A stretch of DNA of 64,000 nt. It comes from a virus. Each line of letters starts with the position of its first letter. Position 1 is the first letter of the stretch. The translations under genes and the position numbers were made by a program. Under the pieces are notes generated by a model that worked only from the letters and a program-made list of their open reading frames with translations, was not told the origin of the DNA and searched no databases. The DNA lies in IMG/VR virus record IMGVR_UViG_3300025000_000065, positions 32,001 to 96,000 of that record, one strand, 5' to 3'. Positions 7,736 through 33,411 of the stretch are shown one piece after another.

Positions 7736-7778
7736 TAAATGAAATATTGGTTTTATTATAAAGAAAGGAATAATTTAA

Positions 7779-7958: not shown

Positions 7959-7998
7959 ATATAATAAAAAATTGATTTTATTGGAAAGGAAATGAGAA

Positions 7999-8928
7999 TT
8001 GAACAATAACATCATTACATTAATTTTCTCAAAAAATAGATCATTACAATTATCATTACTTTTAGATAGTTTTTACAATCAATGTTTGCAACCAAACGCT
8101 ACTGATATCTATGTGGTTTATGCCTACGATCAAGAATACAGAAATTCATATCATCAATTGATCGAAGAACAAAAAGAAAAAGAAAGAAATAATATTCAGT
8201 TTATTGATGAAAATTGTTTTGTTTCTTTTAAATCATCTTTTGTTTATGAAACAAAAAATTATGAATATATAATGTTTTTAGTGGACGATAATATTTTTAC
8301 TAATAAATTTGATTTATCACAAATTAAAAGTTTATTGGAATATAATATTGATGCTGTTGGATTTAGTTTAAGGTTAGGAAAAAATACAAAAAATTGTTAT
8401 CCATTAAAAAAAGAGCAAGAAATTCCAAAAAGTATTGAACATCGTCATATTATAAATTTTTCTTCTTTGCATTTCATTGAAGAAAAGGGACTATTTAAAG
8501 AAGTTGATTTTGCTACTTTCGCTTTTGATTGGACTAAATCACAGTTGGATTTCAATTATGCTTTAGAGATTAGCTCAAGTATTTATAGAATAAAAGATGT
8601 TCGTGCCTTATTAGAAAATTTTAGATATAAAAATCCTAATGAATTAGAAGCACAGTTATATGCTAATTTGTGGCAATTCTATAATAAACCAAAACTATTG
8701 TCATATTATAGAAGTGTTGCTTTTTGTGCTCCAATGAATAAAGTACAAAATGTAGCCTTAAATAATAGATTTAGCAATATCAATATATACGATTCTAATA
8801 ACATGCTAAAAATGTATGAAAATGGCTTTAGAATTGATTGGAAAAAGTTTGATGGATTTACAAGCAATGGATGTCATCAAGAAGTAGAACTATATACTAT
8901 GGAGGAATTTGAAAAATATGGCATATAA
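7999..8928 (+). CDS. Putative GT-A glycosyltransferase
   Basis: IFSKNR.LQL..LL.S, FLVDD, FSLRLG, PNELE. Confidence 0.65.
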   Translation: MNNNIITLIFSKNRSLQLSLLLDSFYNQCLQPNATDIYVVYAYDQEYRNSYHQLIEEQKEKERNNIQFIDENCFVSFKSSFVYETKNYEYIMFLVDDNIFTNKFDLSQIKSLLEYNIDAVGFSLRLGKNTKNCYPLKKEQEIPKSIEHRHIINFSSLHFIEEKGLFKEVDFATFAFDWTKSQLDFNYALEISSSIYRIKDVRALLENFRYKNPNELEAQLYANLWQFYNKPKLLSYYRSVAFCAPMNKVQNVALNNRFSNINIYDSNNMLKMYENGFRIDWKKFDGFTSNGCHQEVELYTMEEFEKYGI

Positions 8929-9751
8929 AAAGAATTTTGTTTCAATTATTATTCCTTACTATAATTACAGTCAATATATAGATCAATGTTTAGAGAGTAT
9001 TTCAAAACAAACATATAAAAAATTTGAAGTAATTATTGTTGATGATCATAGCAACTTAGAAGAACATCATAAACTTTTAGAAATTAAAGCAAAATATTGG
9101 AAAAAAATGGATGTATCTCTTTATTGGAATATAGAAAATTTAGGATTGACACTTACAAGAAATAAAGGGGTAGAAAACAGTAAGGGAGAATTTATTTTAT
9201 TTTTAGATCCCGATGATAATATTCATGAGGACTACTTATTAAAAACAACCAAAACTTTAAAACAAAATCCCGAAATTGGTTTTGCATATGTAAACACAAG
9301 ATACTTTGGAGGAGAAAATAAAGTATTCTCACAACCAGAATATAACTTTTATAGATTGATTAATGCTGGAAATTTTATTTCTTATTGTAGCTTGATTAGG
9401 AAAAAAGCATTTATAGAATCAGGTGGATTTAATTTAGAGAATTGGTCTTATTTGGAGGACTATGAGTTGATAATCAGGTTATCTCGAAAGGGATGGTATG
9501 GAAAATTAGTTCCAGAAGTTTTATTCAATTATTATGTACACGAAGATTCAGCTATTCATTCTGGTTTTACTGCTGAAGCACAAAAATTATTTTATGCCTA
9601 TTTTATAAAAAAATATCATGAGTTATATCCTGAACAGTTGCAAGCAGAAGCAGATAAAATTTTACAAGATGTTCCTAAAAACTTTATGTCTTTGCCAAAA
9701 TCTGAAAATGAAAGGTGGTGGAATGAGTGGAAAAAGAATCATATCCGTTAG
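8909..9751 (+). CDS. GT2 glycosyltransferase
   Basis: VSIIIPYYN, IVDDHS, RNKG, FLDPDD, EDYE. Confidence 0.9.
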   Translation: MKNMAYKKNFVSIIIPYYNYSQYIDQCLESISKQTYKKFEVIIVDDHSNLEEHHKLLEIKAKYWKKMDVSLYWNIENLGLTLTRNKGVENSKGEFILFLDPDDNIHEDYLLKTTKTLKQNPEIGFAYVNTRYFGGENKVFSQPEYNFYRLINAGNFISYCSLIRKKAFIESGGFNLENWSYLEDYELIIRLSRKGWYGKLVPEVLFNYYVHEDSAIHSGFTAEAQKLFYAYFIKKYHELYPEQLQAEADKILQDVPKNFMSLPKSENERWWNEWKKNHIR

Positions 9752-10554
9752 TATCCGTAATAGTTCCTACTTATAATAGAAACAACTTTCTAAAAAAATG
9801 TATTCAATCAATATTAAATTCTACTTATGAAAATTTTGAGATAGTCATTATTCAAGATGGAGGCGAAGAAAGTGCAAAAGATGTTATTGATTTATTTAAT
9901 GATAAAAGAATTAAATTGTTTGTGAAAAAAAACGGTGGTCTTGCATCTGCTAGAAATCATGGAATAAAAAAAGCACAGGGAAAATATATTTCATTTATAG
10001 ATAGTGATGATGGTGTTTATCCAAGCTTTATTGAAACGATGGTTAATTTATTAGAAAACAAAAAATCGGAATTTAAAATCTCATATTGTGATTCTGTAAG
10101 AATACATCAAAGAAAAAATAATAATGGAGAATATGAAAATTTTTGGAGAGACATTCCTTATTCACATGATTTTAATAGAGATTTATTGTTAGTTATGAAT
10201 ATTTCTCCGGTAAATTGTTTTATGATAAATCGCGAATGTTTTAATAATGTTCCACTATTTGACGAAACTGTTTCCGTATATGAAGATTATTTGATGAATT
10301 TAGAATTATCTTTAAAATATGATTTTTATCATTATCCTGTTCCTTTGGTATGGCATACTTGGAGAGAAGATGGCTCTACCATGTCAAGTAGTAGAGATTT
10401 TACAACTCCAATTCCAGGAATATATAAAAAATATTTTCAACATGCAAAAGATCAAATTTGGGTTGCAACTGCTATGAATAATGTATTGGTACAACGAGGA
10501 CTTCAACCACTTTTCAATATTCAATATAAGGAGGAACAAAATGAAAAAAAATAG
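9727..10554 (+). CDS. GT2 glycosyltransferase
   Basis: VSVIVPTYN, NGGLASARN, FIDSDD, EDY. Confidence 0.9.
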   Translation: MEKESYPLVSVIVPTYNRNNFLKKCIQSILNSTYENFEIVIIQDGGEESAKDVIDLFNDKRIKLFVKKNGGLASARNHGIKKAQGKYISFIDSDDGVYPSFIETMVNLLENKKSEFKISYCDSVRIHQRKNNNGEYENFWRDIPYSHDFNRDLLLVMNISPVNCFMINRECFNNVPLFDETVSVYEDYLMNLELSLKYDFYHYPVPLVWHTWREDGSTMSSSRDFTTPIPGIYKKYFQHAKDQIWVATAMNNVLVQRGLQPLFNIQYKEEQNEKK

Positions 10555-10768
10555 AACCAATATTAAAGAATTATTAAAAGATTTTGACGTTTCTACTGAA
10601 GATGAACTTCAAGAAAAACTAATGAATGAATCTACCATAGTAAAATGTACAACTGAAAATTGTTTTAATATGGTAGACTTATTGGATGGACAATTTATTA
10701 ATGGAGATCCTGTTTGTAAAAGATGTTATAGAGAATATTATAGCGAAAGAAAAGATTATGATTTATAG
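10541..10768 (+). CDS. Small Zn-finger protein
   Basis: GGAGG RBS; C..C / CKRC. Confidence 0.45.
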   Translation: MKKNRTNIKELLKDFDVSTEDELQEKLMNESTIVKCTTENCFNMVDLLDGQFINGDPVCKRCYREYYSERKDYDL

Positions 10769-10964
10769 TTTTGTTTGTGATGATTGTGGAAAATATTTTG
10801 AGATCAACTCTCAGCCATTTGTAATTAGCAACAATCAGATTTGTCCCAATTGTAGATCTAAAAATATTCATAGAAAATATAATTTAAATTCCATTCATTA
10901 TAAGGGAAAAGGTTTTACTAAAAAAATTAAAGGAGATGAGGAGAATTCCCCTTGGAAGAGTTAA
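10758..10964 (+). CDS. FmdB-family zinc-ribbon protein
   Basis: MIYSFVCDDCG..FE..CPNC..YKGKGF. Confidence 0.65.
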   Translation: MIYSFVCDDCGKYFEINSQPFVISNNQICPNCRSKNIHRKYNLNSIHYKGKGFTKKIKGDEENSPWKS

Positions 10965-12172
10965 AAGATAACCAACACAACGAAAAACTCCCATTAAATA
11001 TTTCTTTTGTATATGCTGATAAACCAGGCGAATTAAATACTTCAATTTACAGATGTGTAATTCCATATTTAGCATTAAAAAATGCAGGTCATCATGTTTC
11101 ATTGATTCCGGTTCATTTATTTGAACAAAATACAATTGAGGCTAATAATGCTTTAGAGAAATCCGATATTATTGTAATAGAAAGAAATTTCTTTGGAGAT
11201 GTTTTAACTAGAATTGCATATTGGATTGTTAGAGGAAAAATCGTAATTGCTAATTATGATGATTATTATGAAGGAATTGAAGAAACAAATGCTTCTTATT
11301 CTTTTTGGAATAAGGGAGAAGTAGATATTGAAAAAACTGATTATATTAAAGAACCTAGATCTTATGTTTATTCAGATAAATATTATAAGATTAAAAACGA
11401 AACAATAAAAGAAGTTAAAGAAAGACTAAAAAGAATAGGTTATCCTCATCCATTATGGCAATTTAAAATGGGATTGAAAATGGTATATGCTCAAATTATG
11501 CCTAGTAAGTATATGATGAAAAAATATAAAAATCTATCTCCAACATACTATATTCCAAATTATTTTGTAACACAAAATTATATTCATATTCCAAAAACTC
11601 CAAGAGATTTTAAAATAATAGGTTGGGGAGGTAGTTTATCACATCTTCAATCTTTTAAGGATAGTGGTGTCATCCAGGCATTAGAAAATATTATCAATTC
11701 CAGAAACGATGTAAAACTTTTGATTTGTGGTGATCAGAGATTATTGCCATTAATAAAAATTTCAGATGATAAAAAATTGTTTCAACCCTATGTAAAAAAT
11801 GAAGATTGGGGAAAAGTGGTATCATCTTTATTTGATATTGGTATTGCTCCATTAGAAGGAGAATATGATAAATATCGTTCTATGATTAAACCGATAGAAT
11901 TTATGTTAACAAAAACTCCATTTGTTGCATCTTATGGAGAAGCATATAAAGAATTGTTTCAAATTGGAGGTCTTGGAAGTTTTATAAAAAATTCTGCCGT
12001 AAATTGGGAACAAAAACTTTTATATATTTTAGATAATTATGAATCAGAAAAAGAAATAATGAACGGTAAACCGTTTGAATATGCTTTGACTTGGGACTAT
12101 ATGAATGGTGTTGATTACATGGTTGAAACATATAGAAAAATTGCCAGAGAATTAGCAAACAGGGATTTATAA
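10952..12172 (+). CDS. GT-B (GT4-like) glycosyltransferase
   Basis: YRCVIP, YDDY, IPNY, IGWGGS.SH, DIGIAPL, KPIEF..TP.VAS. Confidence 0.8.
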   Translation: MEELKDNQHNEKLPLNISFVYADKPGELNTSIYRCVIPYLALKNAGHHVSLIPVHLFEQNTIEANNALEKSDIIVIERNFFGDVLTRIAYWIVRGKIVIANYDDYYEGIEETNASYSFWNKGEVDIEKTDYIKEPRSYVYSDKYYKIKNETIKEVKERLKRIGYPHPLWQFKMGLKMVYAQIMPSKYMMKKYKNLSPTYYIPNYFVTQNYIHIPKTPRDFKIIGWGGSLSHLQSFKDSGVIQALENIINSRNDVKLLICGDQRLLPLIKISDDKKLFQPYVKNEDWGKVVSSLFDIGIAPLEGEYDKYRSMIKPIEFMLTKTPFVASYGEAYKELFQIGGLGSFIKNSAVNWEQKLLYILDNYESEKEIMNGKPFEYALTWDYMNGVDYMVETYRKIARELANRDL

Positions 12173-12189
12173 TTATAAAAAATTGGTAC

Positions 12190-12218
12190 TTGACAATGAG
12201 TATTCTTTTTGATAAAAT
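12190..12218 (+). promoter_or_regulatory. Sigma70 promoter of recombinase gene
   Basis: TTGACA-17-TAAAAT with extended -10. Confidence 0.8.
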
Positions 12219-12247
12219 AAGAACAGATAAATAAAAAAGGAGAAAAA

Positions 12248-20474: not shown

Positions 20475-22568
20475 ATGAAATATGTTTTAAATGAGCCAAA
20501 GGTTGCGTTAGAAAGTTTTCGACATTATTTACGTGGAACTAAAAAGGTTGGTAAAGCACAACCACTATATTCAAAAATTCAAACTCCTTATGGCGAAAAA
20601 ACAATGGGAGAAATGAATGTTGGAGATGAAATTTTTACTATTGATGGAACTGTAACAAAAATCACTGATGTTTTTCCCCAAGGTGTTAAAGATATTTATG
20701 AAGTTACCTTTTCTGATGGAAGCAAAACAAGATGTTCGGAAGATCATTTGTGGTCTGTTAGAACTAAAAAAATGAAGATCCTCGGAAAGGGATTTAATCG
20801 AATTATGACTTTAGGAGAAATTAAAAAAGATTATTTTTCTTTGGAGAAAGACGGCTATAGACATCCTAAATTTGAAATTCCCATTGCAAGTGCCGTAGAA
20901 TTTGAAAAAAGAGAAATTCCATTAGATCCCTATTTGCTAGGATTATTGTTGGGAGATGGATATATCTGTGGAAGAGTTGTTGGATTTTCCAATACAGAAG
21001 AAGATGTTTTAGAGAAAATTGAAAAAATATCTTTTGAAAAATATGGATGTGGTTTTGTTAAAAATTCAGAGCATAATTGCACGCATCATATAAAAAAACC
21101 AGATGGAGAATACAGAAATCCAATTCGAACAAAATTATCAGAATTGGGATTATTGGGATTAAAATCAAAAGATAAATTTATTCCCCAAGAATATTTATAC
21201 AATGATTATTCAACAAGATTATCTATATTACAAGGATTAATGGATACAGATGGACACATTAGTCAAGAGGGACAAGTTAATTTTTCTTCAACATCTTTAC
21301 AATTAATTGAAAATGTAAAGTGGTTAGTTCATTCCTTGGGAGGTCTTGCCACAATTCATGAAGATGCTAGAATTGGAAAAGAATCTTATTACTTAATTAT
21401 TAGAGCAAATGGATTTGTACCCGTCACATCAGAAAAACATTCTCCAAAATTTGAAAAACATAATCCAAATTTAACTAGATTTATTTCCAATATTGAATAC
21501 ATTGGTAAAGAAGAATGTCAATGTATTAAAGTTGAAGATGATTCAGAATTATATTTAACAGATGAGTTTATTGTTACCCATAATAGCACGTTGTTCCGAG
21601 ATTTAATTGTCGAATATTATGGAGATCCAAAATATGGATTAATGATTGCTCCAGGCAATGAAACAGGTTTTAAAGCCTTAGATAATCTGTATGCTATGGA
21701 AGCTCAAACATGGGAAGATTTCTGCGAAATTGTTAATGATTTAGTATTGAATAAGGCAGACAATGAATTTAAGATTATAGCAATTGATACCGTGGATGAA
21801 CTAATTGCAATTGCAGAAGAAAAAGTATTGAAAATTCATTATCAACGAAAAGGCGAAAAGGCAACTTCTATCAATGCTGCTTTAGGTGGATATGGAGCAG
21901 GAAAGAAAATGCTTCGTAAACTCATCAATGATAAAATCAAAGAAGTTGAAAATGCAGGTTATACCTGGTTTTTCGTTGGACATACGAAAGTTCGTGATAT
22001 TAAAGAAAAGGGACAAGAGGAATCATATCAACAATTAACTTCCAATCTTGAGTTTGATTATGATGCATTATTTACAGATAAAGCAGACATTATTGCCTCT
22101 TGTTACATAGAAAGAAACGTAAAAGATAATTCTTTAGAATCAACTACACGATACATTTATTTTCGCCCTAATGGTTTTGTTGATGCAGGAAGTCGTTTCA
22201 AAGATATGCCAGAGCGTGTTCCTATGACTGCACGTGATTACATTAGTGCTTTTGAACAAGGTGCAAAAGGAACTTATACAAAACCATTGACGAAAAAAGA
22301 ATTGGATAAACGAAAGAAACAAGAAGAAACAGAACGTCAAGAACAAGCTCAAAAATTTACTGAAGCCAAAAAATCTAATTTTGAAGGATTAGAAACAGTT
22401 GAAGATTATCACAAAAAGATTCAGGAAATGAAAGAAGCATTGGACTCTGAGACTGCACGTGAAAAAGGTGAGCAATTAAAAGAAGCTGGATTGCCTCTAA
22501 GATTTAAAGAAATTGAAGATCTCGAACAACTAAAATTATTCTTAAAAATCGTTTCTTCAGACGATTAA
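20475..22568 (+). CDS. AAA_24/Sak4-like P-loop ATPase containing an intein
   Basis: Walker A GTKKVGK|S split by intein; Walker B IAIDT; GGYGAG, VGH, AGSRF. Confidence 0.85.
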   Translation: MKYVLNEPKVALESFRHYLRGTKKVGKAQPLYSKIQTPYGEKTMGEMNVGDEIFTIDGTVTKITDVFPQGVKDIYEVTFSDGSKTRCSEDHLWSVRTKKMKILGKGFNRIMTLGEIKKDYFSLEKDGYRHPKFEIPIASAVEFEKREIPLDPYLLGLLLGDGYICGRVVGFSNTEEDVLEKIEKISFEKYGCGFVKNSEHNCTHHIKKPDGEYRNPIRTKLSELGLLGLKSKDKFIPQEYLYNDYSTRLSILQGLMDTDGHISQEGQVNFSSTSLQLIENVKWLVHSLGGLATIHEDARIGKESYYLIIRANGFVPVTSEKHSPKFEKHNPNLTRFISNIEYIGKEECQCIKVEDDSELYLTDEFIVTHNSTLFRDLIVEYYGDPKYGLMIAPGNETGFKALDNLYAMEAQTWEDFCEIVNDLVLNKADNEFKIIAIDTVDELIAIAEEKVLKIHYQRKGEKATSINAALGGYGAGKKMLRKLINDKIKEVENAGYTWFFVGHTKVRDIKEKGQEESYQQLTSNLEFDYDALFTDKADIIASCYIERNVKDNSLESTTRYIYFRPNGFVDAGSRFKDMPERVPMTARDYISAFEQGAKGTYTKPLTKKELDKRKKQEETERQEQAQKFTEAKKSNFEGLETVEDYHKKIQEMKEALDSETAREKGEQLKEAGLPLRFKEIEDLEQLKLFLKIVSSDD
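20556..21584 (+). mobile_element. Intein (343 aa, Ala-initiated, class 3 signature) with LAGLIDADG endonuclease
   Basis: AQPLYSKIQTP..SEDHLW..LLGLLLGDG..LQGLMDTDG..ECQCIKV..IVTHN|S. Confidence 0.92.
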
Positions 22569-22652
22569 TTCGAATAAAAAATAAAATGTTCATTTTATTG
22601 GTTTTAGAAGGCTATTAGAGGCATGTTTTAGGCGATTTGGAACGTTTTTAAT

Positions 22653-22696
22653 GGTATATTATCAGTAGACAGCTTTATAGGTATATTATCGGTAGA
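22653..22696. repeat. 17-bp direct repeat x2, 27-bp period
   Basis: GGTATATTATC(A/G)GTAGA at 22653 and 22680. Confidence 0.7.
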
Positions 22697-22703
22697 ATTC
22701 AAT

Positions 22704-22739
22704 AAAATAGGGAAGAAAAATAAAATTCTTCCCTATTTT
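22704..22739 (+). terminator. Intrinsic terminator
   Basis: AAAATAGGGAAGAA...TTCTTCCCTATTTT. Confidence 0.7.
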
Positions 22740-22779
22740 AAAACAATAATACAAAATAAAAATTACTTCGGGAGGTACA

Positions 22780-23424
22780 ATGATTATCACCACTCGGAAG
22801 TGTGGATTGTGTAAAGAAAACATAGAATTAGAAAAAGAGAAAAAAACAGTTCTTCAAAGTAAAAAATATTATCATTATGATTGTTTTATAGAAAAAGAGA
22901 TAAATAAAAAACGCAATGTTTTAACTAAAGAAAAAATAGAAAATTTAGCAAATCAACTTATAGAAGAAAATAAAGATTTTATAAATGAAATAATTAATAA
23001 AAATCATTTATATTTATGGTTACAAAAAAAATATAATTTAATAATTATTCCAACTTATGTATATCAGAAATTAGCAGATATATATAATGGAACTTGGAAA
23101 GACATTAATATAAAAATTCCTCCAGAAGATATTCTGGATATGTTTAAAAGACAATGGCATAATCTAGAGCAAATCAATATTAGCAATATTAATAAAGGAA
23201 AAAAATTAAGTCCAGAAAATAGGTTGAATTATGACTTAAGTGTTATAATAAATAAATCAAGTAGTTATTATGAATGGAGGAAAAAACAGGAAGAGCAACA
23301 AATAGAAATGATGCAATCCATAGAATCTTCACAAGCAACTAATAATTTTAGAAGCTCTATGGGGATTGAACAAAATATTACAAGCAATGAAAACGACTTA
23401 TCTCAATATTTAGAGGAGATTTAA
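22780..23424 (+). CDS. Replication protein with N-terminal Zn finger (YorH-like position; possible helicase loader)
   Basis: KCGLC..YYHYDC; directly upstream of helicase. Confidence 0.55.
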   Translation: MIITTRKCGLCKENIELEKEKKTVLQSKKYYHYDCFIEKEINKKRNVLTKEKIENLANQLIEENKDFINEIINKNHLYLWLQKKYNLIIIPTYVYQKLADIYNGTWKDINIKIPPEDILDMFKRQWHNLEQINISNINKGKKLSPENRLNYDLSVIINKSSSYYEWRKKQEEQQIEMMQSIESSQATNNFRSSMGIEQNITSNENDLSQYLEEI

Positions 23425-23427
23425 AAA

Positions 23428-24954
23428 TTGATAGAACAAAAAGACTTAGAAAACATTCCAAATGAAATAGCGTTAGTTGGAGCATTTTATAAAAATCCAG
23501 AATTATATATTTCATATGGATCATCAATTAAATCAAAGTATGATTTTTCAGGAGAGGTATCAAAATTTTTATACGATTGTTTTGAGCTAATATATCAAAC
23601 CATATCTCAAAAAATAAATGAAACAAAAGTCAATTCGTTTATGATCATGGATGATAAAAGATTACAATTATATAAAAAATATGGGGGATATAAAACAATA
23701 GATGATTGGATGAATTTATCTGATCCAGAAGATTTTGATAATTATTTTGGAATATTAAAAAAATATTCTTTGCTAAGAGAATTTTATAGAAGTGGATATA
23801 ATGTTGAAAAACTTATCACTCATAAAAAATTTGATGTTTGGAGCGCACAAGATATTTTCAAAATGTTGCGATCTAAAGTTGATAAGATTCACACTGTTAT
23901 TCTTTCCAATCAAGAAAGTGTTATCTTAAATGAAAACGCAGAGAAAGACATTAAATCGTATGTAATAAAACCACAAGCAGGATTATCTTATCCCTGGATT
24001 GTTATTGATGAAATGTTTAAAGGAATGAGATTAGGAAAAGCTGTATTAACTGGATTCCTTAGCAATGAAGGAAAAACCAGAAATCTTATTATGCTCATGA
24101 GTTATATAGCATTAGTAAAAAATAAACCCGTTTTAATTATGTCAAATGAAATGGATGATGAAGATTTAAAATCCTGCTTGATTACTACAATTGTAAACAA
24201 TGAATGCTTCCAAGAATTACATGGTGTCAAAATGAAGAAAATGGAAGGGGAAATTGTTTTAGGAAAATATAGAGATCAAAGAGGAGCAATTATTCAAAGA
24301 GAAAAAGATGAAAATGATATCTATACCGAAAGGGAAGAAGACTTCATTAACAGACTAGAAAGAGACTCCGAAGAATACAGAAACATAATAAAAATTGGTC
24401 AATGGATTGATAGCAGAAAAGAAAAACTTATATTTTTCAAAAATGTTGGAACAGATTATTCCGATCAAACACTAGAATTTGAAATTCGAAAACATAAACT
24501 TTTATATGGTGTTGATTATGTTGCCTATGACACTATGAAGGGCTATCGAACAGATGATTGGATGACGGTAAAACAATCATTTACTAAGTTAAAAGAATTG
24601 ATGAGTGAATTGAATATTTGGGGATGGTTTGTATTTCAATTAGCTGACCAGGCAGTTCACATGGATATTTTCGATATGAGTAGTAATGAAATTGCCAATG
24701 CCAAACAGATTAAACATCCTGTAGACCACATGCTATTAGGAAAAAGAATTTATCCCTCAGAATATCATAAATATAAATATATTCCAAACTATCAATGGGG
24801 AGATCCTAGACCAATTCCATTAGACCTTTCTAAAAAATATATGGCTTTAAAAGTTGAAAAAAATAGAAGTGGTAACAAAGCAAATTATCCATTATTTGAA
24901 TATGATTTAGATTATAATACTTGGGACAATGTTGGAAGTTTAGTTAGAGCATAA
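23428..24954 (+). CDS. DnaB-like replicative helicase
   Basis: SNEGKTR, SNEM, YDTMK, FQL, KNRSG. Confidence 0.85.
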   Translation: MIEQKDLENIPNEIALVGAFYKNPELYISYGSSIKSKYDFSGEVSKFLYDCFELIYQTISQKINETKVNSFMIMDDKRLQLYKKYGGYKTIDDWMNLSDPEDFDNYFGILKKYSLLREFYRSGYNVEKLITHKKFDVWSAQDIFKMLRSKVDKIHTVILSNQESVILNENAEKDIKSYVIKPQAGLSYPWIVIDEMFKGMRLGKAVLTGFLSNEGKTRNLIMLMSYIALVKNKPVLIMSNEMDDEDLKSCLITTIVNNECFQELHGVKMKKMEGEIVLGKYRDQRGAIIQREKDENDIYTEREEDFINRLERDSEEYRNIIKIGQWIDSRKEKLIFFKNVGTDYSDQTLEFEIRKHKLLYGVDYVAYDTMKGYRTDDWMTVKQSFTKLKELMSELNIWGWFVFQLADQAVHMDIFDMSSNEIANAKQIKHPVDHMLLGKRIYPSEYHKYKYIPNYQWGDPRPIPLDLSKKYMALKVEKNRSGNKANYPLFEYDLDYNTWDNVGSLVRA

Positions 24955-24955
24955 T

Positions 24956-25975
24956 ATGGATATCAAGGAATTGAAAAAATATATTATCGAAAACGATAAA
25001 GTAGAATATATTTTAGAAAATTTAGATTGCCAAAAAATAAAATTTCATAATTCTGGTTATTGGACTTGTGGTAATCCTCCTCCATCAGATAATCCTAATG
25101 CTGTTACAATATATAAAGATAATTTAAAAGTAATTAATTACACAAAAGATATGTCAGAACCATCAGACATATTTACATTGATTGAATATTATAAGAACAT
25201 AAATTTCTTTGAATCTTTAAAATGGATTTGTGATTTATTAGAAATTGATTTCTATAAAGATTCCAATGAAGAACTACCAAAAGAGTTATTGATCACAAAA
25301 CAATTAATTAGTATGCGAACTGGATCAAAGAGAGAGGATGATGATGATACTCCAATAAAACCACTATCAGAAGAAATAATAAAATATTATCCAGCAATTG
25401 GGAATACAATGTTTTTTGATGATGGAATAGATTATCAGACTCAATATGAATTTGGCTTATCATATGATAATGAAAGTAATCGAATATTAATTCCCGTACA
25501 TTCTGAAATAGGAGATTTGGTATCTTATAAAGGAAGATTGTTTAAATATAAATTAAATAAGGACGAACAAAAATATATTTATTTATATCCTTGTCCTAGA
25601 AATAAACTCTTATTCGGATATAATAAAACACATTTGTATATTAAAAAAGAAAATTGGGTTTGGGTTGGAGAAGCTGAGAAATTTGTGTTACAATTATGGT
25701 CTTACGGTTATTATAATTCTATCGCTACAGGTGGTACAAAAATAGGACAGACACAAATAGATAAAATAAGTAGATTGGGAGTTCCAATTTGTTTTTGTTT
25801 TGATAAAGATATAAAAAAAGAAACTATAGAAAAAATATCTGAAAGGTTTACTGATGGAATTGATATTTATGCTATTTTCGATGAAGATAATTTGTTGAAA
25901 GAAAAAGAATCGCCTAGTGATCAAAAAGAAATTTGGGAATTATTGGTTAAAAATAATGTTTACAAAATAAAATAA
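24956..25975 (+). CDS. DnaG-like primase
   Basis: RILIP..G..YKGR, KY, Toprim EAEK..ATGG..FDKD. Confidence 0.85.
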   Translation: MDIKELKKYIIENDKVEYILENLDCQKIKFHNSGYWTCGNPPPSDNPNAVTIYKDNLKVINYTKDMSEPSDIFTLIEYYKNINFFESLKWICDLLEIDFYKDSNEELPKELLITKQLISMRTGSKREDDDDTPIKPLSEEIIKYYPAIGNTMFFDDGIDYQTQYEFGLSYDNESNRILIPVHSEIGDLVSYKGRLFKYKLNKDEQKYIYLYPCPRNKLLFGYNKTHLYIKKENWVWVGEAEKFVLQLWSYGYYNSIATGGTKIGQTQIDKISRLGVPICFCFDKDIKKETIEKISERFTDGIDIYAIFDEDNLLKEKESPSDQKEIWELLVKNNVYKIK

Positions 25976-25987
25976 ATATGATAGAAT
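25959..25987 (+). promoter_or_regulatory. Sigma70 promoter of the methyltransferase gene
   Basis: TTTACA-17-TAGAAT with extended -10. Confidence 0.6.
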
Positions 25988-26018
25988 AGAAAAATAAATT
26001 ATTAAAGGAGAAAATTAA

Positions 26019-26717
26019 TTGAAAAAAGAATTCAATAAAGTTTATAACATTGATTTCTTTGAAGGAATGTCTTCTATAAAAAATGATTTTATAGATTTAT
26101 TACTTACAGATCCTCCATATGGAATAAACTTAACTCCTCAAAGACGAAATAGTAAATTTAAAAATACCAAAATAAAAAATGATAATAATTTAGATTGGTT
26201 AGAATCTTTTGTCAATGAATCTTATAGGATTATGAAAAATGCTGGATTTATTTTTTGTAATTGGCAAAAATATGATATTTTCAAACAAGCATTTGAAAAA
26301 AAATTTATTATCAAAAACCTTATAGTTTGGGATAAGATGTGGTTTGGAATGGGAAATAACTTTAGACCCAATCATGAATTTATTATGCTTATATGTAAAA
26401 CAAATATTACAATAAAATCAAATAATTTATCTAATATTTTATCTTTTAGAAGACTTCATCCATCTAAAATGATTCATTCCTGCGAAAAGCCAGTTCCATT
26501 ATTGCAATTATTAATTAATGAAACAACTAACGAAGAAGATATTATTTTAGATCCCTTTGCTGGAAGTGGAAGTTGTCTAGAGGCAAGCTTAAAAACAAAA
26601 AGAAAATTTATTGGATTTGATAATGGCAAAAATGAAAAAACCAATGAACATTGGGCTGATATAGCAAATCAAAGATGTCTTAATGTAAAAATAAAAGGAG
26701 AAACAAATGAATTATAA
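26019..26717 (+). CDS. N6-adenine/N4-cytosine DNA methyltransferase (beta class), orphan
   Basis: TDPPY precedes HSCEKP and DPFAGSGS. Confidence 0.9.
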   Translation: MKKEFNKVYNIDFFEGMSSIKNDFIDLLLTDPPYGINLTPQRRNSKFKNTKIKNDNNLDWLESFVNESYRIMKNAGFIFCNWQKYDIFKQAFEKKFIIKNLIVWDKMWFGMGNNFRPNHEFIMLICKTNITIKSNNLSNILSFRRLHPSKMIHSCEKPVPLLQLLINETTNEEDIILDPFAGSGSCLEASLKTKRKFIGFDNGKNEKTNEHWADIANQRCLNVKIKGETNEL

Positions 26718-28428
26718 ATTGCTAAATAAAAATTATAAAGAAGAGTTAGAAAATAAAACAATTAAGGAATTTATTTTATCTAACAGAAATATTGAAAATC
26801 CAAGTATCTATTTATCTCTTACAAAAGACAATGTTCATCATTATTCTTTATTAGAAAATATTGATAAAGCAAAAAATGTCTTGTTAGAAACAATAAAGAA
26901 TAAAGGAAAAATCGGAATTATTGTGGATGTAGATGTAGACGGATTCTCTTCGGCATCTATTCTATATCAATATCTTGCAAGAAATTATGATCAATCAAAA
27001 TTGTCTTATTTTATTCATACTAAAAAACAACATGGTATTTCAGATTTGTTATCTCAAATATTAAAATCAAAAATTAATCTTTTAATTGTTCCAGATGCAG
27101 GAACAAACGACACTAAGGAATGTAAAATTCTTCAAGAAAAAAATATTCAAGTAATTGTATTAGACCATCACCAGGTAGAAGAAGAAAATCCATATGCTAT
27201 TGTTGTAAATAATCAACTTGGAAATTATCCCAATAAATATCTCAGTGGAGCAGGCGTAACTAAAAAATTCCTAGAAAGTTTAGATGATGAATTATGGGAT
27301 GATTCAAGTGACTTTGATGATCTAGTTGCTATATCAATTATTGCAGATTCCATGTCCATATTAGAATATGAAAACCGTTATCTGGTTACAAAGGGTTTAA
27401 AAAATATTAGAAATAAATTTATTCAAGCAATTATAGAAAAACAATCTTATTCAATTGGCAACACAGATAATATCAATGTTAATATAGTTGCATTTTATAT
27501 TTCTCCATTAATCAATGCTTTAATTAGATCGGGTTCTTTAGAAGAAAAAGAATTAATGTTCAGAGCTTTTATTAATGATCCAGAAACTTTTCCATATAAA
27601 AAACGAAGCGGAGAAGAAATTCAGGAAACAATGCAAGAAATGGTTGCCAGATTAGCAACTAATTTAAAAGCCAAACAGAATAGAGAAATTGATAAGTCTT
27701 TAGAATATTTACGTGGATTAATTGATAAGAACGAATGGAATAAAAACAAGATTTTATTTGTTGATGCTGATGGAGTGGATTATAGTTTCACAGGATTAAC
27801 AGCAATGAAACTTGCTTCAGAATATCAAAAGCCTTGTCTATTAATTAGAAAAAATAGGGACAATGTTTTTGCTGGATCTGCGAGAAATTATGGAAATCAA
27901 ATTGAAAACCTTAAAGATTATTTATTGGAAACAGGGTATTTTGAATATGCTCAAGGGCATCCATCGAGTTTCGGATTAGGAATAAAAATTGAAAATATAA
28001 AACCTGCACTAGAAAAATTAAATGAACAATTGAAAGACATTAACTTTGGAGAATTTATTCATTATATTGATTTTGAAATTAGCATAGAAAATTTAAGCGT
28101 TGAAATAATTAAAGATATGAATGAACTTTATGACTATTATGGAAATGGAATTGAAGAAAGTTTAGTGTTAGTAAAAAATATTCCAGTAAATACAACTAAT
28201 ATTGAACTTATGGGAAAAACAGAAGACACATGGAAATTCCTGTATAATAATGAAATTCAATTTATCAAATTTAAAAACAATAAAGATGATGCTATTATGA
28301 AAGCAAGACAAAACGATTGGTCTGGAGCAAATTTAAAAATTAATGCTATCTGTAAATTAAGCATGAACGAATATGGTGGAGTTAGAATTCCTCAATGTAT
28401 TGTTGTTGATTATGAAAGTATAGAATAG
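26707..28428 (+). CDS. recJ: RecJ-like ssDNA exonuclease (DHH)
   Basis: DVDVDG, LDHH, LSGAGV, GSAR, QGH. Confidence 0.88.
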   Translation: MNYKLLNKNYKEELENKTIKEFILSNRNIENPSIYLSLTKDNVHHYSLLENIDKAKNVLLETIKNKGKIGIIVDVDVDGFSSASILYQYLARNYDQSKLSYFIHTKKQHGISDLLSQILKSKINLLIVPDAGTNDTKECKILQEKNIQVIVLDHHQVEEENPYAIVVNNQLGNYPNKYLSGAGVTKKFLESLDDELWDDSSDFDDLVAISIIADSMSILEYENRYLVTKGLKNIRNKFIQAIIEKQSYSIGNTDNINVNIVAFYISPLINALIRSGSLEEKELMFRAFINDPETFPYKKRSGEEIQETMQEMVARLATNLKAKQNREIDKSLEYLRGLIDKNEWNKNKILFVDADGVDYSFTGLTAMKLASEYQKPCLLIRKNRDNVFAGSARNYGNQIENLKDYLLETGYFEYAQGHPSSFGLGIKIENIKPALEKLNEQLKDINFGEFIHYIDFEISIENLSVEIIKDMNELYDYYGNGIEESLVLVKNIPVNTTNIELMGKTEDTWKFLYNNEIQFIKFKNNKDDAIMKARQNDWSGANLKINAICKLSMNEYGGVRIPQCIVVDYESIE

Positions 28429-28435
28429 AATAAAT

Positions 28436-31039
28436 ATGATTACTAATTTTGAAAAAAAATATGTTTATGATATTGAAGTATTTCCTAATTTTTTTTCTTC
28501 CATATTTTTAGATATAGATACTCAAGAAAAAGAAACTTTTATTATATTTCAAAAGAGAAATGATACTAAAGAATTATTCAATTTTTTAAACAGAAATATT
28601 CAAATAATAGGTTATAATAATATTTATTATGATGGTGCTATTTTATATTATATTCTTGAAAACATGGAATTATCAATAGAAGATTTACTAACTAATATAT
28701 TTAGAATATCTAGCAAATTAGTTTCTGATGATTTTAGATTTGATAAAGAGATTAGAGAATTACAATTTCCAGGAAAAGAGTTACCTTATTATCAATTGGA
28801 TTTGATGAAGATACTCGCTTTTGATAAGTTAGGTATAAGTTTAAAGCAAACATCCATTAACTTAAAATGGCATAAGGTACAAGATCTTCCTTTAGAATAT
28901 GATACCCTGATAAAAAAAGAACAAATTAACATTATACTAGATTATAACTTCAATGATGTTTTAATTACTTTCGAGTTATATAAAAAAATATTACCCTTAA
29001 TCAATTTAAGAAAAGATTTAGGAGAAATATTTAAGGTTGATTTAAATAACGCTAGCGATAGCAAAATGGCTAATGTTTTATTAGAAGAGATTTATTCTAA
29101 AGAATTAAATTTAGATATAAATACCATTAAAAATTTACGAACAAAGAGAGATCAATTCATGTTATCTGAATGTATATCAGATAAAATAGAGTTTAAGACA
29201 AATAAATTAAAGAAAATAAAACTAGAAATAGAGAATACTCTTGTTCGTAAAGACACTAATTATAGATATAAAAAGCAAATAGAATTCGCAGGATGTAAAT
29301 ACGAATTAGGTATTGGAGGATTGCATAGTGTAGATGATGCTAGATTGTTTGAAACAGATGATAACTATCTAATACAAGACTGTGATGTTTCTAGTTATTA
29401 TCCTAATATTATATTGAATGAAAAAATTATTCCTGAGCATTTAGATGAAGGATTTCTAAAGGTATTAGACAAAATAACTAAGGAAAGATTAGAAGCTAAA
29501 CACACAGGAGATAAAGTTAAAGCTGATGGTTTAAAAATCACAATCAATTCTATTTTTGGAAAATTAGGAAGTAATACTTTCTGGTTGGAAGATGCTAAAG
29601 CTATGATCAGTGTTACTTTATCTGGTCAATTATATTTATTAAGTTTAATAGAATCTCTAGTTTTAGAAGGAATACCTACCATATCTGCTAATACAGATGG
29701 TATAATTTGTAAAATACCAAAAAATCTAGAAAAAAAATATTATGAAGTATGTAAGCAATGGGAAAAAAGAACAAATTTTGAATTAGAGTACACTCCATAT
29801 TCTTTATATATTAGGTCGGATGTTAATAATTATATTAGCAAAAAGACAGATAATGAAACAAAAGAAAAAGGAAGATATACAAAAGAGATAAGTATTAAAA
29901 AGGGCTATAAATATCCTATTGTTGCTGTAGCAATGTATGAATATTTTATTAATAAAAAACCAATTTTAGAAACGTATAAGGAATCTACTGATATTTTAGA
30001 TTTTTGTATATCTCAAAAAGCTGGGGGAGATTTTCAAGTAGAATTTCATAAAAATGATAATATTGAATTTTTACAAAAAAATAATAGATTTTTTATTAGT
30101 AAAGATGGTGGAAAATTAATAAAAAGAAGAAAGTCAGATAATACTACAATTGGATTATTTGTAGATCAGCTAACTACAGTCATAAATGATTACGATAAAA
30201 ATATATCAATTGATACTTATAATATAGATTATGACTTTTACGTAGAAGAAGCTTACAAATATATTAACGATATTGAACTTAATAAAGATACAAAAATAGA
30301 TTTTTCTATTAATGATATTAGTGAAGACGAAATTAAAATAGAAAAACCTGATCCCGAAATAGAAAAAATATTAAATAAACTAAACAAAATAAAAGGTTTG
30401 AGTACTGGAGTAGTTCAAAATTTGCTAATCATTCATAATAAGTTTAAATCTGGAAGTTTTTTAGACTTATTAGTATTCGCAGAAGACAACTCTTATCTAT
30501 CTACCAAATTTGAAGATCTAATAAAAATAAGATATTTTGAAGAATTTGGAAAAAACAAAAAACTATATGAATTTTATCAAGAATTTACTTCTGGTAAAAA
30601 CAGATATTCCAAAACACACACAGATAAAACAAAAGAAAAAAGGATTTCTGAACTACAAAAAATATGGAATGACATTCCCAATAAAAATTATTCAATTCAA
30701 GAACAAATAAAAAACGAATTAGAAATCTTAAACGAAATTCAAACTAACTTTCCAGTAAACAAAAACTATGCAGTAGCAATAGAATTAGATTTAAAATATT
30801 CTCCAAAAATAGAATTTCAAAATCTCTTGACAGGAGAAAGAAAAACGTTTAAAATAAAGAGTAAGATTTATAATGAATTTTCTATAAATAAAGGTGACAT
30901 TTTATTGTTTAAAAAGGTTATAAAAAAGAATTCTATGACTAAAAACGAAGAAGGTAAATGGGTTCAAATAGAAGATAAATTTGATTTATGGCTAGATGTA
31001 TATTATATTATTAAAGAAAATGATAAATTATCGAAGTAA
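28436..31039 (+). CDS. Family B-type DNA polymerase with 3'-5' exonuclease and about 220-aa C-terminal extension resembling phage DnaE C-termini
   Basis: YDIE, GYNN..YD, YNFND; DVSSYYPN, KITINSIFGK, NTDG; tail LNKIKGL..LIKIRYFEEFG..KYSPKI. Confidence 0.85.
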   Translation: MITNFEKKYVYDIEVFPNFFSSIFLDIDTQEKETFIIFQKRNDTKELFNFLNRNIQIIGYNNIYYDGAILYYILENMELSIEDLLTNIFRISSKLVSDDFRFDKEIRELQFPGKELPYYQLDLMKILAFDKLGISLKQTSINLKWHKVQDLPLEYDTLIKKEQINIILDYNFNDVLITFELYKKILPLINLRKDLGEIFKVDLNNASDSKMANVLLEEIYSKELNLDINTIKNLRTKRDQFMLSECISDKIEFKTNKLKKIKLEIENTLVRKDTNYRYKKQIEFAGCKYELGIGGLHSVDDARLFETDDNYLIQDCDVSSYYPNIILNEKIIPEHLDEGFLKVLDKITKERLEAKHTGDKVKADGLKITINSIFGKLGSNTFWLEDAKAMISVTLSGQLYLLSLIESLVLEGIPTISANTDGIICKIPKNLEKKYYEVCKQWEKRTNFELEYTPYSLYIRSDVNNYISKKTDNETKEKGRYTKEISIKKGYKYPIVAVAMYEYFINKKPILETYKESTDILDFCISQKAGGDFQVEFHKNDNIEFLQKNNRFFISKDGGKLIKRRKSDNTTIGLFVDQLTTVINDYDKNISIDTYNIDYDFYVEEAYKYINDIELNKDTKIDFSINDISEDEIKIEKPDPEIEKILNKLNKIKGLSTGVVQNLLIIHNKFKSGSFLDLLVFAEDNSYLSTKFEDLIKIRYFEEFGKNKKLYEFYQEFTSGKNRYSKTHTDKTKEKRISELQKIWNDIPNKNYSIQEQIKNELEILNEIQTNFPVNKNYAVAIELDLKYSPKIEFQNLLTGERKTFKIKSKIYNEFSINKGDILLFKKVIKKNSMTKNEEGKWVQIEDKFDLWLDVYYIIKENDKLSK

Positions 31040-31065
31040 GACTGATATAGAAACGGAGATAATTC

Positions 31066-33411
31066 TTGAAAGAATTCAAAATAAAACACTACAAGGAAGA
31101 AGAGGATTTATTGTCTGTGATTTACAATAATAAAAAATCGGATTTACCAATAGATTTTGATCAAGTATATGAATTTACAGGATTTTCAACTCATGAAAGA
31201 TTTTATTCTGATGATTCATCATGGGGTGTTTATACTTTTAATTCAGAAATAGAACTGCCTACTTCCATTATTATTAATGATATAAATATTTTTTCTACAA
31301 AAGAAGATGACAAAATTCTATATCAGGTAACTCTACGTGGAAAAATGCAACAATTAGATCCTTTTTCTAATGTTCCATATAAAGTAAAAGCTAAGTTATC
31401 CAATCATTCAAAATGGGGATATGGATTTGAAGTTATCAGTATTTCTCAAGATACTCCAAAAACCGTTGAAGATACTGGACTATTTTTAAAATCAATTTTA
31501 ACAGAAAATCAAACCAATATACTTTTAGAGATTTATCCTGATATTGTAGATATGGTTATAAATAATCCTAATGTTGATTCAGAAATTGATTTGAATAAAC
31601 TCAATGGAATTAAAGAATTTACCTGGAAAATTATAAAAAATAAAATTTTAGATAATTATTTAATGGCAGATGTATTATCACTTTTATCACCATATGGTAT
31701 TTCACAAAAAAGAATTAAACAACTTTTCAATGAAGAGGCAAACCCATATTTATTAAAAGAAAAATTATTGAACGATCCATATATAATTACTGAAATAGAT
31801 GGTATTGGATTTAAAACTGCTGATGCAATTTCATTAAAAATAAATCCAAGTTTATTGATTTCCGAACAAAGAACAAGAGGATTTGTTAAAGATTATTTAA
31901 AAAATATTGGAGAAGAAAGAGGCGATACCTGGATTTATTTAAGTGAATTAGATTCCGCTATTAAAGAAAATGTTCTTGAGACAGAAATATTGTATAACGA
32001 ATTTATCGAATCTGAAAAACAACATGAAACCATTCTCCACATTGAAAAAGATGAAGAAAAAAATGATTATAAAGTAGGCTTTCATTATTACTATTGGATT
32101 GAAAGTGAAATATGGGATAAAATAATTGCTTCTAATAAAGAAGAACCTTTATGGATCAACCAAGAACATATTGATAATGGAATTAAAGAAGCAGAAAAAG
32201 AACAAGGTTTTACTTTTACTGAAGAACAAAAACAAGCAATTATAAACATGACTAAAAATAATTTTAATACTTTGTCATCTCCGGCAGGTTGTGGAAAATC
32301 AACCATATCTAGGGGTATATTAAAAATATATCAAAAGGCAGGATATTCTATAAATTGTGCTACGCTATCCGCAAAAGCAGCGATTAGATTAAATGAAACA
32401 ACTGGATTTCCAAGTCAAACAATACATCGACTTTTAGAAGCCCGACCAGGAGGAGTATTCGGGCGCAATCGTAATTTAAAGCTATCAGAAGGAGTGTTCT
32501 TAATTGATGAATGCTCAATGATTAATTCTTATTTATTCAAAAAATTATTTGAAGCAATTTCAGAAAATTCTAAAATTATTCTTGTAGGAGATAACTACCA
32601 GGTCAGCCCAATAGGGTATGGAAATACTTTTGAAGATATACTAAAAAAAGATTTTTTACAAAACAATAAATTAACTAAAATACTTAGACAGGCTGCAAAA
32701 AGTGGAATTATTAGTGATTCCAATAAAATAAGACAAGGAATATCGCCTTTTATAAAAAAAGAACCCAAAATGGTCAGGGGAGAATTACAAGATATTTTTT
32801 ATATATTTAGAGACAATCGAGAATCATTAAATAAAATAGCCATCAATAGTTTTATGAAATCTTTAGAAGAAGGGAGATCCATTGATGACATCGTTATTTT
32901 AGTTCCAAGAAAAAAAGATGTAATCAATTCCACTCAAGAAATAAATAAAAAAATACAATCTATATTAATGAAAAATGAAACAAGATTTATTGATTATGGA
33001 AATTCAAAATATTATTTTGGAGATAAGGTAATTCATATAAAAAATAATTATGATAAAAATGTAATGAATGGAGAAATGGGAAGAATAATATCTATTTATA
33101 AAAACAATGATAAGCAAGATTGTATCTTGGTGGATTTTGGGGATAAAGAAATTGAATATACAAAAAGAGATATGAAAGAATTAGATTTAGGTTATTCTCT
33201 CACAGCATATAAATTCCAAGGATCACAATCTTTAGATGTTATTACAATTATTGATAATACTCATTTTATGTTATTAAGTAAAAACTATCTCTACACCGCA
33301 ATAACCAGATCAATCAGCCGTTGTTTACTTCTCGCAGAACCATATGCATTTGATATGTGTATAAAAACAGATAGAACATCAACTAGAAACACTTGGATGA
33401 AAGGATTTTAA
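31066..33411 (+). CDS. RecD2-like SF1 helicase
   Basis: GIGFKTAD (HhH), AGCGKS, TIHRLL, IDECSM, GD..Q, RQ, KFQGSQ, YTAITR. Confidence 0.9.
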   Translation: MKEFKIKHYKEEEDLLSVIYNNKKSDLPIDFDQVYEFTGFSTHERFYSDDSSWGVYTFNSEIELPTSIIINDINIFSTKEDDKILYQVTLRGKMQQLDPFSNVPYKVKAKLSNHSKWGYGFEVISISQDTPKTVEDTGLFLKSILTENQTNILLEIYPDIVDMVINNPNVDSEIDLNKLNGIKEFTWKIIKNKILDNYLMADVLSLLSPYGISQKRIKQLFNEEANPYLLKEKLLNDPYIITEIDGIGFKTADAISLKINPSLLISEQRTRGFVKDYLKNIGEERGDTWIYLSELDSAIKENVLETEILYNEFIESEKQHETILHIEKDEEKNDYKVGFHYYYWIESEIWDKIIASNKEEPLWINQEHIDNGIKEAEKEQGFTFTEEQKQAIINMTKNNFNTLSSPAGCGKSTISRGILKIYQKAGYSINCATLSAKAAIRLNETTGFPSQTIHRLLEARPGGVFGRNRNLKLSEGVFLIDECSMINSYLFKKLFEAISENSKIILVGDNYQVSPIGYGNTFEDILKKDFLQNNKLTKILRQAAKSGIISDSNKIRQGISPFIKKEPKMVRGELQDIFYIFRDNRESLNKIAINSFMKSLEEGRSIDDIVILVPRKKDVINSTQEINKKIQSILMKNETRFIDYGNSKYYFGDKVIHIKNNYDKNVMNGEMGRIISIYKNNDKQDCILVDFGDKEIEYTKRDMKELDLGYSLTAYKFQGSQSLDVITIIDNTHFMLLSKNYLYTAITRSISRCLLLAEPYAFDMCIKTDRTSTRNTWMKGF

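Follow-up and report, generated by a model that had tools for sequence, protein, structure and literature searches.

A predicted family B DNA polymerase on a phage DnaE C-terminus, at a replication locus where catalytic cores appear to be exchanged

How does a family B DNA polymerase come to end like a family C replicase? The question is raised by an open reading frame (ORF) at 28436..31039 (+) in a 64,000-nucleotide (nt) stretch of viral DNA, hereafter the window, which corresponds to bases 32001-96000 of the 111,969-bp IMG/VR virus record IMGVR_UViG_3300025000_000065 (CheckV completeness 93%, GC content about 28%). Public sequencing runs containing this stretch are groundwater metagenomes. 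The gene is one open frame of 867 amino acids (aa) plus stop, free of internal stops. A first-pass annotation, made from the sequence alone, described it as a family B polymerase (PolB) core fused to a DnaE-type C-terminus and proposed that the core had been swapped in situ while the ancestral tail was kept. Our analysis points to a predicted replicative PolB seated on a DnaE tail at a polymorphic locus, where cores have very probably been swapped repeatedly, as a cassette, by homologous recombination. Neither PF07733 (the DnaE core) nor PF00476 (PolA) has a match anywhere in the 112-kb record; the ORF is therefore the sole DNA polymerase detected in it.

The first 615 residues (28436..30280, +) are a complete family B polymerase, with a DEDDy 3'-5' exonuclease, palm, fingers and thumb, intact catalytic residues and the PolB fold. 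The PHROG family phrog_1252, annotated 'DNA polymerase', matches aa 4-618 (E 7e-143). Searches with tblastn found about 30% identity to annotated PolBs in some 990 phage records (Seurat/CAjan-like phages and others), and every one of these matches leaves the last 240 aa uncovered. All the motifs that the first-pass annotation had quoted, for the first ~610 aa and for the linker and tail alike, were found, far beyond chance expectation. The exonuclease motifs are ExoI (D12/E14), ExoII (N61/Y65/D66) and ExoIII (Y170/D174). The polymerase motifs, all on the + strand, are motif A, DVSSYYPN (aa 317-324, 29384..29407), with the catalytic D317 and with D317, S320 and Y322 invariant; motif B, KITINSIFGK (aa 367-376, 29534..29563), with K367, N371 and G375 invariant and aligned to KIIMNAFYG of Pol II; and motif C, NTDG (aa 419-422, 29690..29701), aligned to DTDS of E. 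coli Pol II. Across 80 aligned relatives of full length, the catalytic residues are invariant or almost so (exonuclease D12/E14, N61/D66 and Y170/D174; D317; K367/N371/G375; N419-T-D-G). Motif C carries Asn in place of the first Asp of DTD and retains the second, metal-binding Asp; NTDG is present in 177 of 179 family members, tailed or tail-less. The clade is a divergent phage one: Pfam PF00136 (PolB) has no match in the ORF, and NCBIfam Pol II matches are weak (27.9 bits, far under cut-off). Foldseek with a full-length AlphaFold2 (AF2) model (predicted local distance difference test score, pLDDT, 90.6) returned Tgo, KOD, 9N, Pol II and Pol alpha (E 3.5e-13 to 5e-11, probability 1.0). The family C catalytic domains PHP (PF02811), PF07733 and PF17657 have no match in the 867-aa protein or elsewhere in the 112-kb genome.

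The remainder of the protein is of another origin. An acidic linker (about aa 616-640) leads into a first helix-hairpin-helix (HhH) unit, aa 629-675 (30320..30460, +), which contains LNKIKGL (aa 647-653, nt about 30374). The segment called here the shared tail follows, aa 676-867 (30461..31036, +), with a second HhH, LIKIRYFEEFG (aa 695-705), a helical region holding the conserved basic loop GKNRYSKTHTDKTKEKR, and a beta-rich oligonucleotide-binding (OB) fold at aa ~777-858. Residues 629-867 are homologous to the tandem-HhH and OB end of phage DnaE-type polymerases. With tblastn their matches are confined to the far C-terminal ends of genes that are annotated in phages as DNA polymerase III alpha, the best being the DnaE of Geobacillus virus E3 (38.8% identity, E 2e-24), followed by those of Tsamsa-like Bacillus phages, phiCD211 and lactococcal phages. 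The E3 match is the last 190 aa of a 1014-aa DnaE, after its PHP, pol3_alpha, finger and HHH_6 domains, and a hidden Markov model of the tail aligns to aa 787-1013 of the same protein (E 8e-77). Two PHROG families match the tail only, phrog_11119 (E 1.5e-15) and phrog_405, the latter at positions 869-1067 of 1190. The statement in the first-pass annotation that phage DnaEs end in a similar HhH and OB tail is borne out, and the separate searches of the two halves that it proposed gave PolBs for one and phage DnaE C-termini for the other.

A phmmer scan of 1.84 billion representatives with the tail gave 374 matches, of which the best 150 were inspected. Nearly all of these 150 carry the tail at their C-terminus, and every N-terminal part among them that could be typed is either DnaE-type (full-length, intein-bearing or split) or PolB; the untypeable ones are about 55 short fragments and a few longer proteins (e.g., P0137, P0147, P0252). 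The AF2 model of the tail (pLDDT 93) consists of seven helices followed by an OB barrel. Pol III alpha chains, with their beta-binding HhH and OB domains, are the only solved ones that align with it over both domains: Taq 2hpi at 877-1125 (Z 7.0, 173 aa aligned), Mycobacterium tuberculosis DnaE1 7pu7 at 846-1099 (Z 6.6, 185 aa) and E. coli 5fku at 818-1074 (Z 6.2, 188 aa). Structure prediction, also suggested at the outset, gives a PolB fold for the core and a tail that superposes on the HhH and OB of Pol III alpha. A sequence search of the PDB with the tail found no significant match, and the best Foldseek hit of the tail alone, M. tuberculosis DnaE1, reached just E 4e-3. The tail is under purifying selection: against two relatives, the ratio of nonsynonymous to synonymous substitution rates (dN/dS) is 0.056-0.058 for the core, 0.075-0.097 for the shared tail and 0.08-0.17 for the first HhH. 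On these values we consider the tail functional.

Is the DnaE that this tail would belong to still present in related phages? We searched IMG/VR by RecJ alignment for the module AAA_24, orf22780, DnaB-like helicase, primase, RecJ, polymerase and RecD2-like helicase, and found the same module with either polymerase type in the slot. New here is a sister phage, L086, with a genuine DnaE after RecJ, and a DnaE, P0274, that shares the tail of the PolB. L086 is 97.6% identical to the window at the nucleotide level over 22776-26020 (orf22780, helicase, primase), and its encoded proteins are 100% (DnaB-like helicase), 99% (primase) and 92% (RecJ) identical. In the DNA alignment similarity stops exactly at the RecJ stop codon, and the following ORF begins with MNYINYHSHSQYS, a PHP-domain N-terminus. 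The 1064-aa P0274, whose N-terminus is 100% identical to this DnaE start, has PHP at 6-168, pol3_alpha at 294-563 and fingers at 574-726; both it and P0275 carry all three of PHP, the PF07733 palm and the PF17657 fingers. Its aa 873-1064 are 96.9% identical, over 192 aa, to aa 676-867 of the window PolB, and upstream of these the HhH hairpin motif alone is recognisable: the first HhH of the window protein is homologous to the DnaE HhH, with just weak identity to P0274 aa 814-872. P0288, a DnaE with an intein, and the PolB P0002 have tails that are 99.0% identical, and several more DnaEs share the tail at 86-91%. L086 and the window are thus close genomes with polymerases of different families at the same locus and between the same flanks, as in an in-situ swap. 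The gene was not replaced as a whole, only the part upstream of aa ~676 being different and the last 192 codons being shared.

The borders of the exchanged part can be located on the DNA. Identity sets in at the same place, FL(D/N)LL, in 4 of 4 aligned DnaE/PolB pairs (P0274/P0001, P0288/P0002, P0279/P0002, P0277/P0001). Two runs from another study, X5 and X6, yielded one contig (X5 record 23) that matches the window only at 30476-31391, with 14 differences, runs into the RecD2-like gene and has 929 unlike bases ahead of the match, and another, of 698 nt, that matches 28192-28427 and then diverges. With the left border at the stop codon of RecJ (28428) and the right one at nt ~30461-30476, the exchangeable unit is therefore core, linker and first HhH, and this HhH is allele-specific and travels with the PolB core. 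The first-pass annotation had placed the junction in the acidic linker (30270-30380). The linker is there, whereas the allele border lies further on, at aa ~676-681, inside the HhH region. Its in-situ swap of a core with the tail kept likewise holds as a partial swap, through L086 and P0274; in this lineage the exchange may have run in the direction it assumed, PolB replacing DnaE, or the other way.

The same module with a DnaE between RecJ and RecD2 also occurs in the more distant L094 and L095 (RecJ 43-46% identical). The L095 DnaE (7735-10938) has a canonical bacterial-type HHH_6 (73 bits) and a weak tRNA_anti-codon OB match, and the phage-tail model matches neither it nor the L094 DnaE (7669-12246), so that DnaEs of this module carry at least two tail types. 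Searches of viral contigs for related loci with P0075, P0274 and P0122 added nothing new.

How often cores changed was read from a maximum-likelihood tree built on the 192 columns that the shared segment spans in 91 PolB and 43 DnaE proteins. Core types interleave on it, with 14 changes by parsimony, at least 7 of which are forced by branches with a support of at least 95 in the Shimodaira-Hasegawa-like approximate likelihood ratio test (SH-aLRT). The window tail falls in a well-supported (starred) 4-row clade with P0274. Given this interleaving, the tail follows the phage backbone and cores reassort against it. The PolB-plus-tail architecture, with its own diverged first HhH, is itself old and widespread in uncultured phages. 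A core tree with outgroups gathers all tailed forms in one 124-row clade (99, starred), in which a tail-less CBM subclade and a class of ~750-aa PolBs with a partial tail nest with weak support, a pattern compatible with a single origin of the fusion as well as with several. Locus L111 encodes, at 7728-10370, a divergent PolB (28% identical to the window core, with a PF00136 match) with a tail (E 9e-21), between RecJ and a RecD-like gene; it may represent an independent capture of the tail.

Several other explanations have to be weighed against this picture. An assembler could have joined a PolB and a DnaE tail from two co-occurring phages, a prospect that the first-pass annotation had itself raised. 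Both alleles seem to share the same groundwater communities, contigs of run X1 break at the RecJ/polymerase border and one 1.9-kb ENA contig, P0122, looks chimeric. Yet exactly this 867-aa protein is encoded by 8 contigs, which come from JGI, Logan and ENA, and at least 87 of the 120 best clusters, drawn from JGI, ENA, Logan and NCBI on contigs of up to 139 kb, are full-length fusions of 853-953 aa with the same one-frame architecture down to 40% identity. An independent 2502-nt Logan contig bridges 28129-30630, junction included, with 0 differences, and core and tail diverge together under purifying selection on both. We regard an assembly or binning artefact as highly improbable. In X1, the likely source sample, the contig in question, of 10,955 nt, ends at 28417, just short of the polymerase start, as expected if the alleles co-exist and the assembly graph branches there, which is a weak hint. 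P0122 encodes a 303-aa ORF in which a GT2-glycosyltransferase-like N-terminus of ~104 aa runs into the equivalent of tail aa 669-867 (94% identity). Either the short contig is chimeric or it bears the scar of a recombination at almost the same breakpoint; as a lone, possibly chimeric 1.9-kb contig it was not used as evidence. Still less credible, to the point of being negligible, is that the extension is a native, generic HhH/OB add-on of this PolB clade whose likeness to DnaE is convergent. HhH and OB are frequent folds, SSB, RPA and PriB match the OB part with scores as high as those of Pol III alpha, and C-termini of this family bear other add-ons, such as Zn ribbons and a shorter OB-only tail. 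Convergence would not, however, produce 97-99% identity to bona fide DnaE tails or 39% identity over 190 aa to the DnaE of a cultured phage, and outgroup PolBs are without the tail and end in QLxLF. The possibility, foreseen in the first-pass annotation, that the C-terminal part has no DnaE similarity is dispelled by the same comparisons (96.9% to the P0274 tail; E 2e-24 to E3 DnaE).

A more serious contender, which we nevertheless hold to be unlikely, is that a complete PolB-plus-tail gene, made once long ago elsewhere, replaced the DnaE in the SPbeta/E3-like module. The tail would then not be a resident remnant, and the 192 aa shared with the sister DnaE would come from later gene conversion from PolB to DnaE. 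Such an arrival would agree with the age and diversity of the fusion, with its presence in unrelated replication modules and with a first HhH specific to the PolB allele. It would agree too with the fused PolB tails outside the E3-type module being 41-44% identical to the E3 DnaE tail, versus 37% for the window. We had taken the divergence from E3 (tail 39% versus neighbours 37-40%) as an argument that the tail was retained in place, and dropped it because those tails in unrelated modules are closer to E3. Against a whole-gene arrival, the tails of DnaE relatives with 51-91% core identity keep pace with their cores in divergence and are interspersed among PolB tails, the tail thus behaving as backbone for both cores; and present gene pairs differ only upstream of aa ~676, which is a partial swap whichever core came first.

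The exchange of cores on a retained tail, which we prefer, has points against it as well. Identity of the PolB-bearing L005 and L009 to the window stays at ~87% throughout, and PolB is no exception. At such an ordinary backbone identity PolB may be the resident allele and L086 may have gained its DnaE later, or the history may have run the other way. PolBs with the tail are also found in modules of other kinds, with a primase-helicase and a Cas4-like exonuclease and no RecJ; the tail can therefore not be specific for this module's own RecJ, helicase or primase, and the chimera also moves as a whole gene. The Pfam HHH_6 (PF14579) match on aa 629-709 has E 0.009 and 16.6 bits versus a cut-off of 25.6, which the fused relatives P0035 and P0117 exceed (34.8-34.9 bits), and the Pol III alpha Z-scores (6.2-7.0) are modest. 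L086 is a 6-kb contig ending 249 nt into its DnaE, and its link to P0274 is 100% identity over 78 aa. E. coli alpha has its beta-clamp-binding motif at 920-924, between HhH and OB, and no internal QxxLF motif was seen by eye between these domains of the window protein. Nor was a phage sliding clamp found: PF00712 has no match, and PF02768 reaches just 16 bits, in an ORF that lies outside the window and, at 96 aa, is too short for a clamp.

How might such exchanges come about? The gene encodes a predicted replicative family B polymerase, with proofreading exonuclease and polymerase, that ends in the last ~240 residues of a phage DnaE. The QL[ST]LF end of a tail-less PolB would have decayed to a relic in the linker, with the DnaE module following it. 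Closely related phages have one of two cores at this locus, a PolB core or a DnaE core with PHP, palm and fingers. Either core brings a first HhH of its own and continues into the common last 192 residues, with RecJ on one side of the gene and the RecD2-like helicase on the other. Homology arms would then be provided by the RecJ side and by the tail, and homologous recombination would exchange the core between them as a cassette, repeatedly.

The proposed decay of a clamp peptide draws on the tail-less forms. Distant tail-less relatives (30-42% identity, ~50 loci) are 600-650 aa long and end in QLSLF, QLTLF or QLKLF directly after the last core helix. The QL[ST]LF-type pentapeptide is a bacterial beta-clamp-binding peptide, and E. 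coli Pol II, which resembles the chimera in its exonuclease and polymerase motif set and in fold, ends in a C-terminal clamp-binding peptide as these relatives do. Nearer tail-less forms retain Q-x-S-L-F-D, and at the same position fused forms have ..FSFID.. or ..IPFVD.. and the window has ..DFSIND... Alignments of the C-termini place the linker segment TKIDFSIND (30290..30316, +) there, a possible degenerate clamp motif. Judging from these alignments, the clamp peptide appears to be ancestral to the fusion and to have decayed to a relic in the linker of the chimera. No separate tail gene was found within 9 kb of tail-less PolBs in ~60 loci. In this PolB family, add-ons concentrate at the C-terminus. 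A class of ~750-aa PolBs (L013, L014, L016, L020, P0101-P0115) has a clear PQLSLF.. clamp peptide followed by a shorter tail: that of L013, L014 and P0112 matches just the middle and OB of the DnaE tail model (E 1e-9), that of L020 matches model positions 128-236 (E 2e-24), and L016 has no match to it. P0057 carries a canonical DnaE OB (PF01336) and a long Pro-rich end, and P0063 and P0076 carry Zn ribbons.

As to what the tail does, Pol III alpha offers the obvious comparison: its HhH domain contacts duplex DNA beside the clamp and its OB domain contacts the single-stranded template. By analogy the tail may make similar DNA contacts. It could provide duplex and single-strand contacts, dock the core to a replisome partner, as the first-pass annotation supposed, or both, and so render non-homologous cores interchangeable. 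The conserved basic loop (GKxxYxKxxxxKTKxKR) might bind the acidic tail of a partner. A predicted complex of the tail with the phage DnaB-like helicase gave a score 0.14 under the mark and speaks neither for nor against binding. Tentatively, and with rather more doubt than belief, we suggest that the HhH-OB tail is a lineage-specific adaptor on which B and C cores are plug-compatible, forming a balanced polymorphism that homologous recombination reshuffles, perhaps because host defences or inhibitors act against one polymerase type.

Polymerase swapping in situ is a known phenomenon in Caudoviricetes. Yutin et al. 2024 (PMC11348598) described it, including changes from PolC to PolA in the SPbeta clade, and found that helicase, primase and RecJ sometimes travel along with the swapped polymerase. 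The locus studied here resembles those cases in that close phages carry non-homologous polymerases at one locus with unchanged flanks, and in that the module is the same (DnaB-like helicase, primase, RecJ-like exonuclease, polymerase). It differs from them in that they concern whole genes or blocks and A/B or A/C exchanges, whereas the window swap is B/C and partial, with the last 192 residues shared; B/C chimeras and partial swaps are not described in that study. A PolB with a DnaE tail is unmentioned in surveys of PolB (PMC7544198), bacterial polymerases (PMC12926913) and jumbo phages (PMC7824862), and a non-exhaustive literature search found no published description of such a chimera. Like phage DnaEs (SPbeta YorL, E3 GP96, phiCD211, Tsamsa-like), the chimera occupies the slot after RecJ, has a homologous HhH and OB and stops at the OB fold with no tau-binding domain. 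Unlike them, it is devoid of PHP, the Pol-beta-like nucleotidyltransferase palm, thumb and fingers, its predicted catalytic core being an unrelated PolB. With the tail-less PHROG 1252 PolBs (Seurat/CAjan-like, Acinetobacter IMEAB3, 'Rudgehvirus') it shares the exonuclease and polymerase motifs, fold and NTDG; these stop at the clamp peptide, at about 610-650 aa, while the chimera has a decayed peptide and 240 aa derived from DnaE.

The closest concept in the literature is the replacement of DP2 by PolB. The origin of eukaryotic replicative PolBs has been proposed (Tahirov 2009; Koonin 2020; discussed in PMC7544198) to lie in a PolB that replaced the catalytic part of PolD DP2 and kept the DP2 C-terminal domain. 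Both cases have a non-homologous catalytic core on the retained C-terminal domain of the previous replicase. The DP2 event is ancient and inferred, and its C-terminal domain is a Zn-binding one that binds the B-subunit, whereas the phage exchange is recent, has recurred, can be read from sister genomes and concerns an HhH/OB module.

The genes around the polymerase form a recognisable replication module, in the order AAA_24 (with an intein), orf22780, DnaB-like helicase, primase, methylase, RecJ, chimeric polymerase and RecD2-like helicase. Its upstream part (20475..25975, +), comprising an AAA_24/Sak4-like ATPase with an intein, orf22780, the DnaB-like helicase and the primase, is collinear with SPbeta yorG-yorJ and Geobacillus virus E3 GP103-GP98. 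The SPbeta order given in the first-pass annotation agrees with the SPbeta record (yorG ATPase, yorH, yorI helicase, yorJ, yorK RecJ-like, yorL polymerase). Identity to E3 is 40.4% for the helicase, 36.6% for the primase and 40.4% for RecJ. The RecJ-like exonuclease lies at 26707..28428 (+; Pfam DHH and RecJ_OB) and the RecD2-like helicase, downstream of the polymerase, at 31066..33411 (+; Pfam AAA_30, SH3_13 and HHH_RecD2). The Sak4/YorG-like ATPase (20475-22568) is split by an intein, in which Pfam recognises a homing endonuclease of the LAGLIDADG type (LAGLIDADG_3, E 2.6e-13; Hom_end and Intein_splicing matches weak), and inteins also occur in several sister DnaE alleles, e.g., P0288 (1493 aa, PF14890). 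An N6/N4 DNA methylase gene at 26019-26717, in the primase/RecJ interval, is missing in the 97.6%-identical L086, and the methylases at this position in L005, L007, L009, L089 and L090 are only 24-44% identical, so the site looks like a second variable slot of the module. L009 has RecJ, polymerase and nucleotide-metabolism genes 87-94% identical to those of the window, while its DnaB-like helicase (196-1746 versus window 23428-24954) is only 35% identical and its RecD2-like helicase 65%. With such low values in an otherwise close phage, further replisome genes of the module have therefore been swapped too.

Proteins of 860-950 aa with this architecture now stand as unnamed 'hypothetical proteins' with no Pfam polymerase domain. 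Families B and C are unrelated in fold, and sister phages mount both engines on one C-terminal module. The C-terminal HhH/OB region of DnaE is thus an autonomous, transferable unit, replicase evolution can proceed by exchange of the catalytic core alone, and a shared tail together with an upstream gene can act as recombination arms for a core cassette. The locus offers a testable system for the non-catalytic roles of the DnaE C-terminus (clamp, DNA and partner binding), in which one may also ask what selects for polymerase replacement. It is a living parallel to the proposal that eukaryotic PolBs retained the PolD C-terminal domain. If the tail is indeed plug-compatible, it would represent a present-day, experimentally tractable counterpart of the step from PolD to the eukaryotic polymerases, a new core on an old C-terminal domain.

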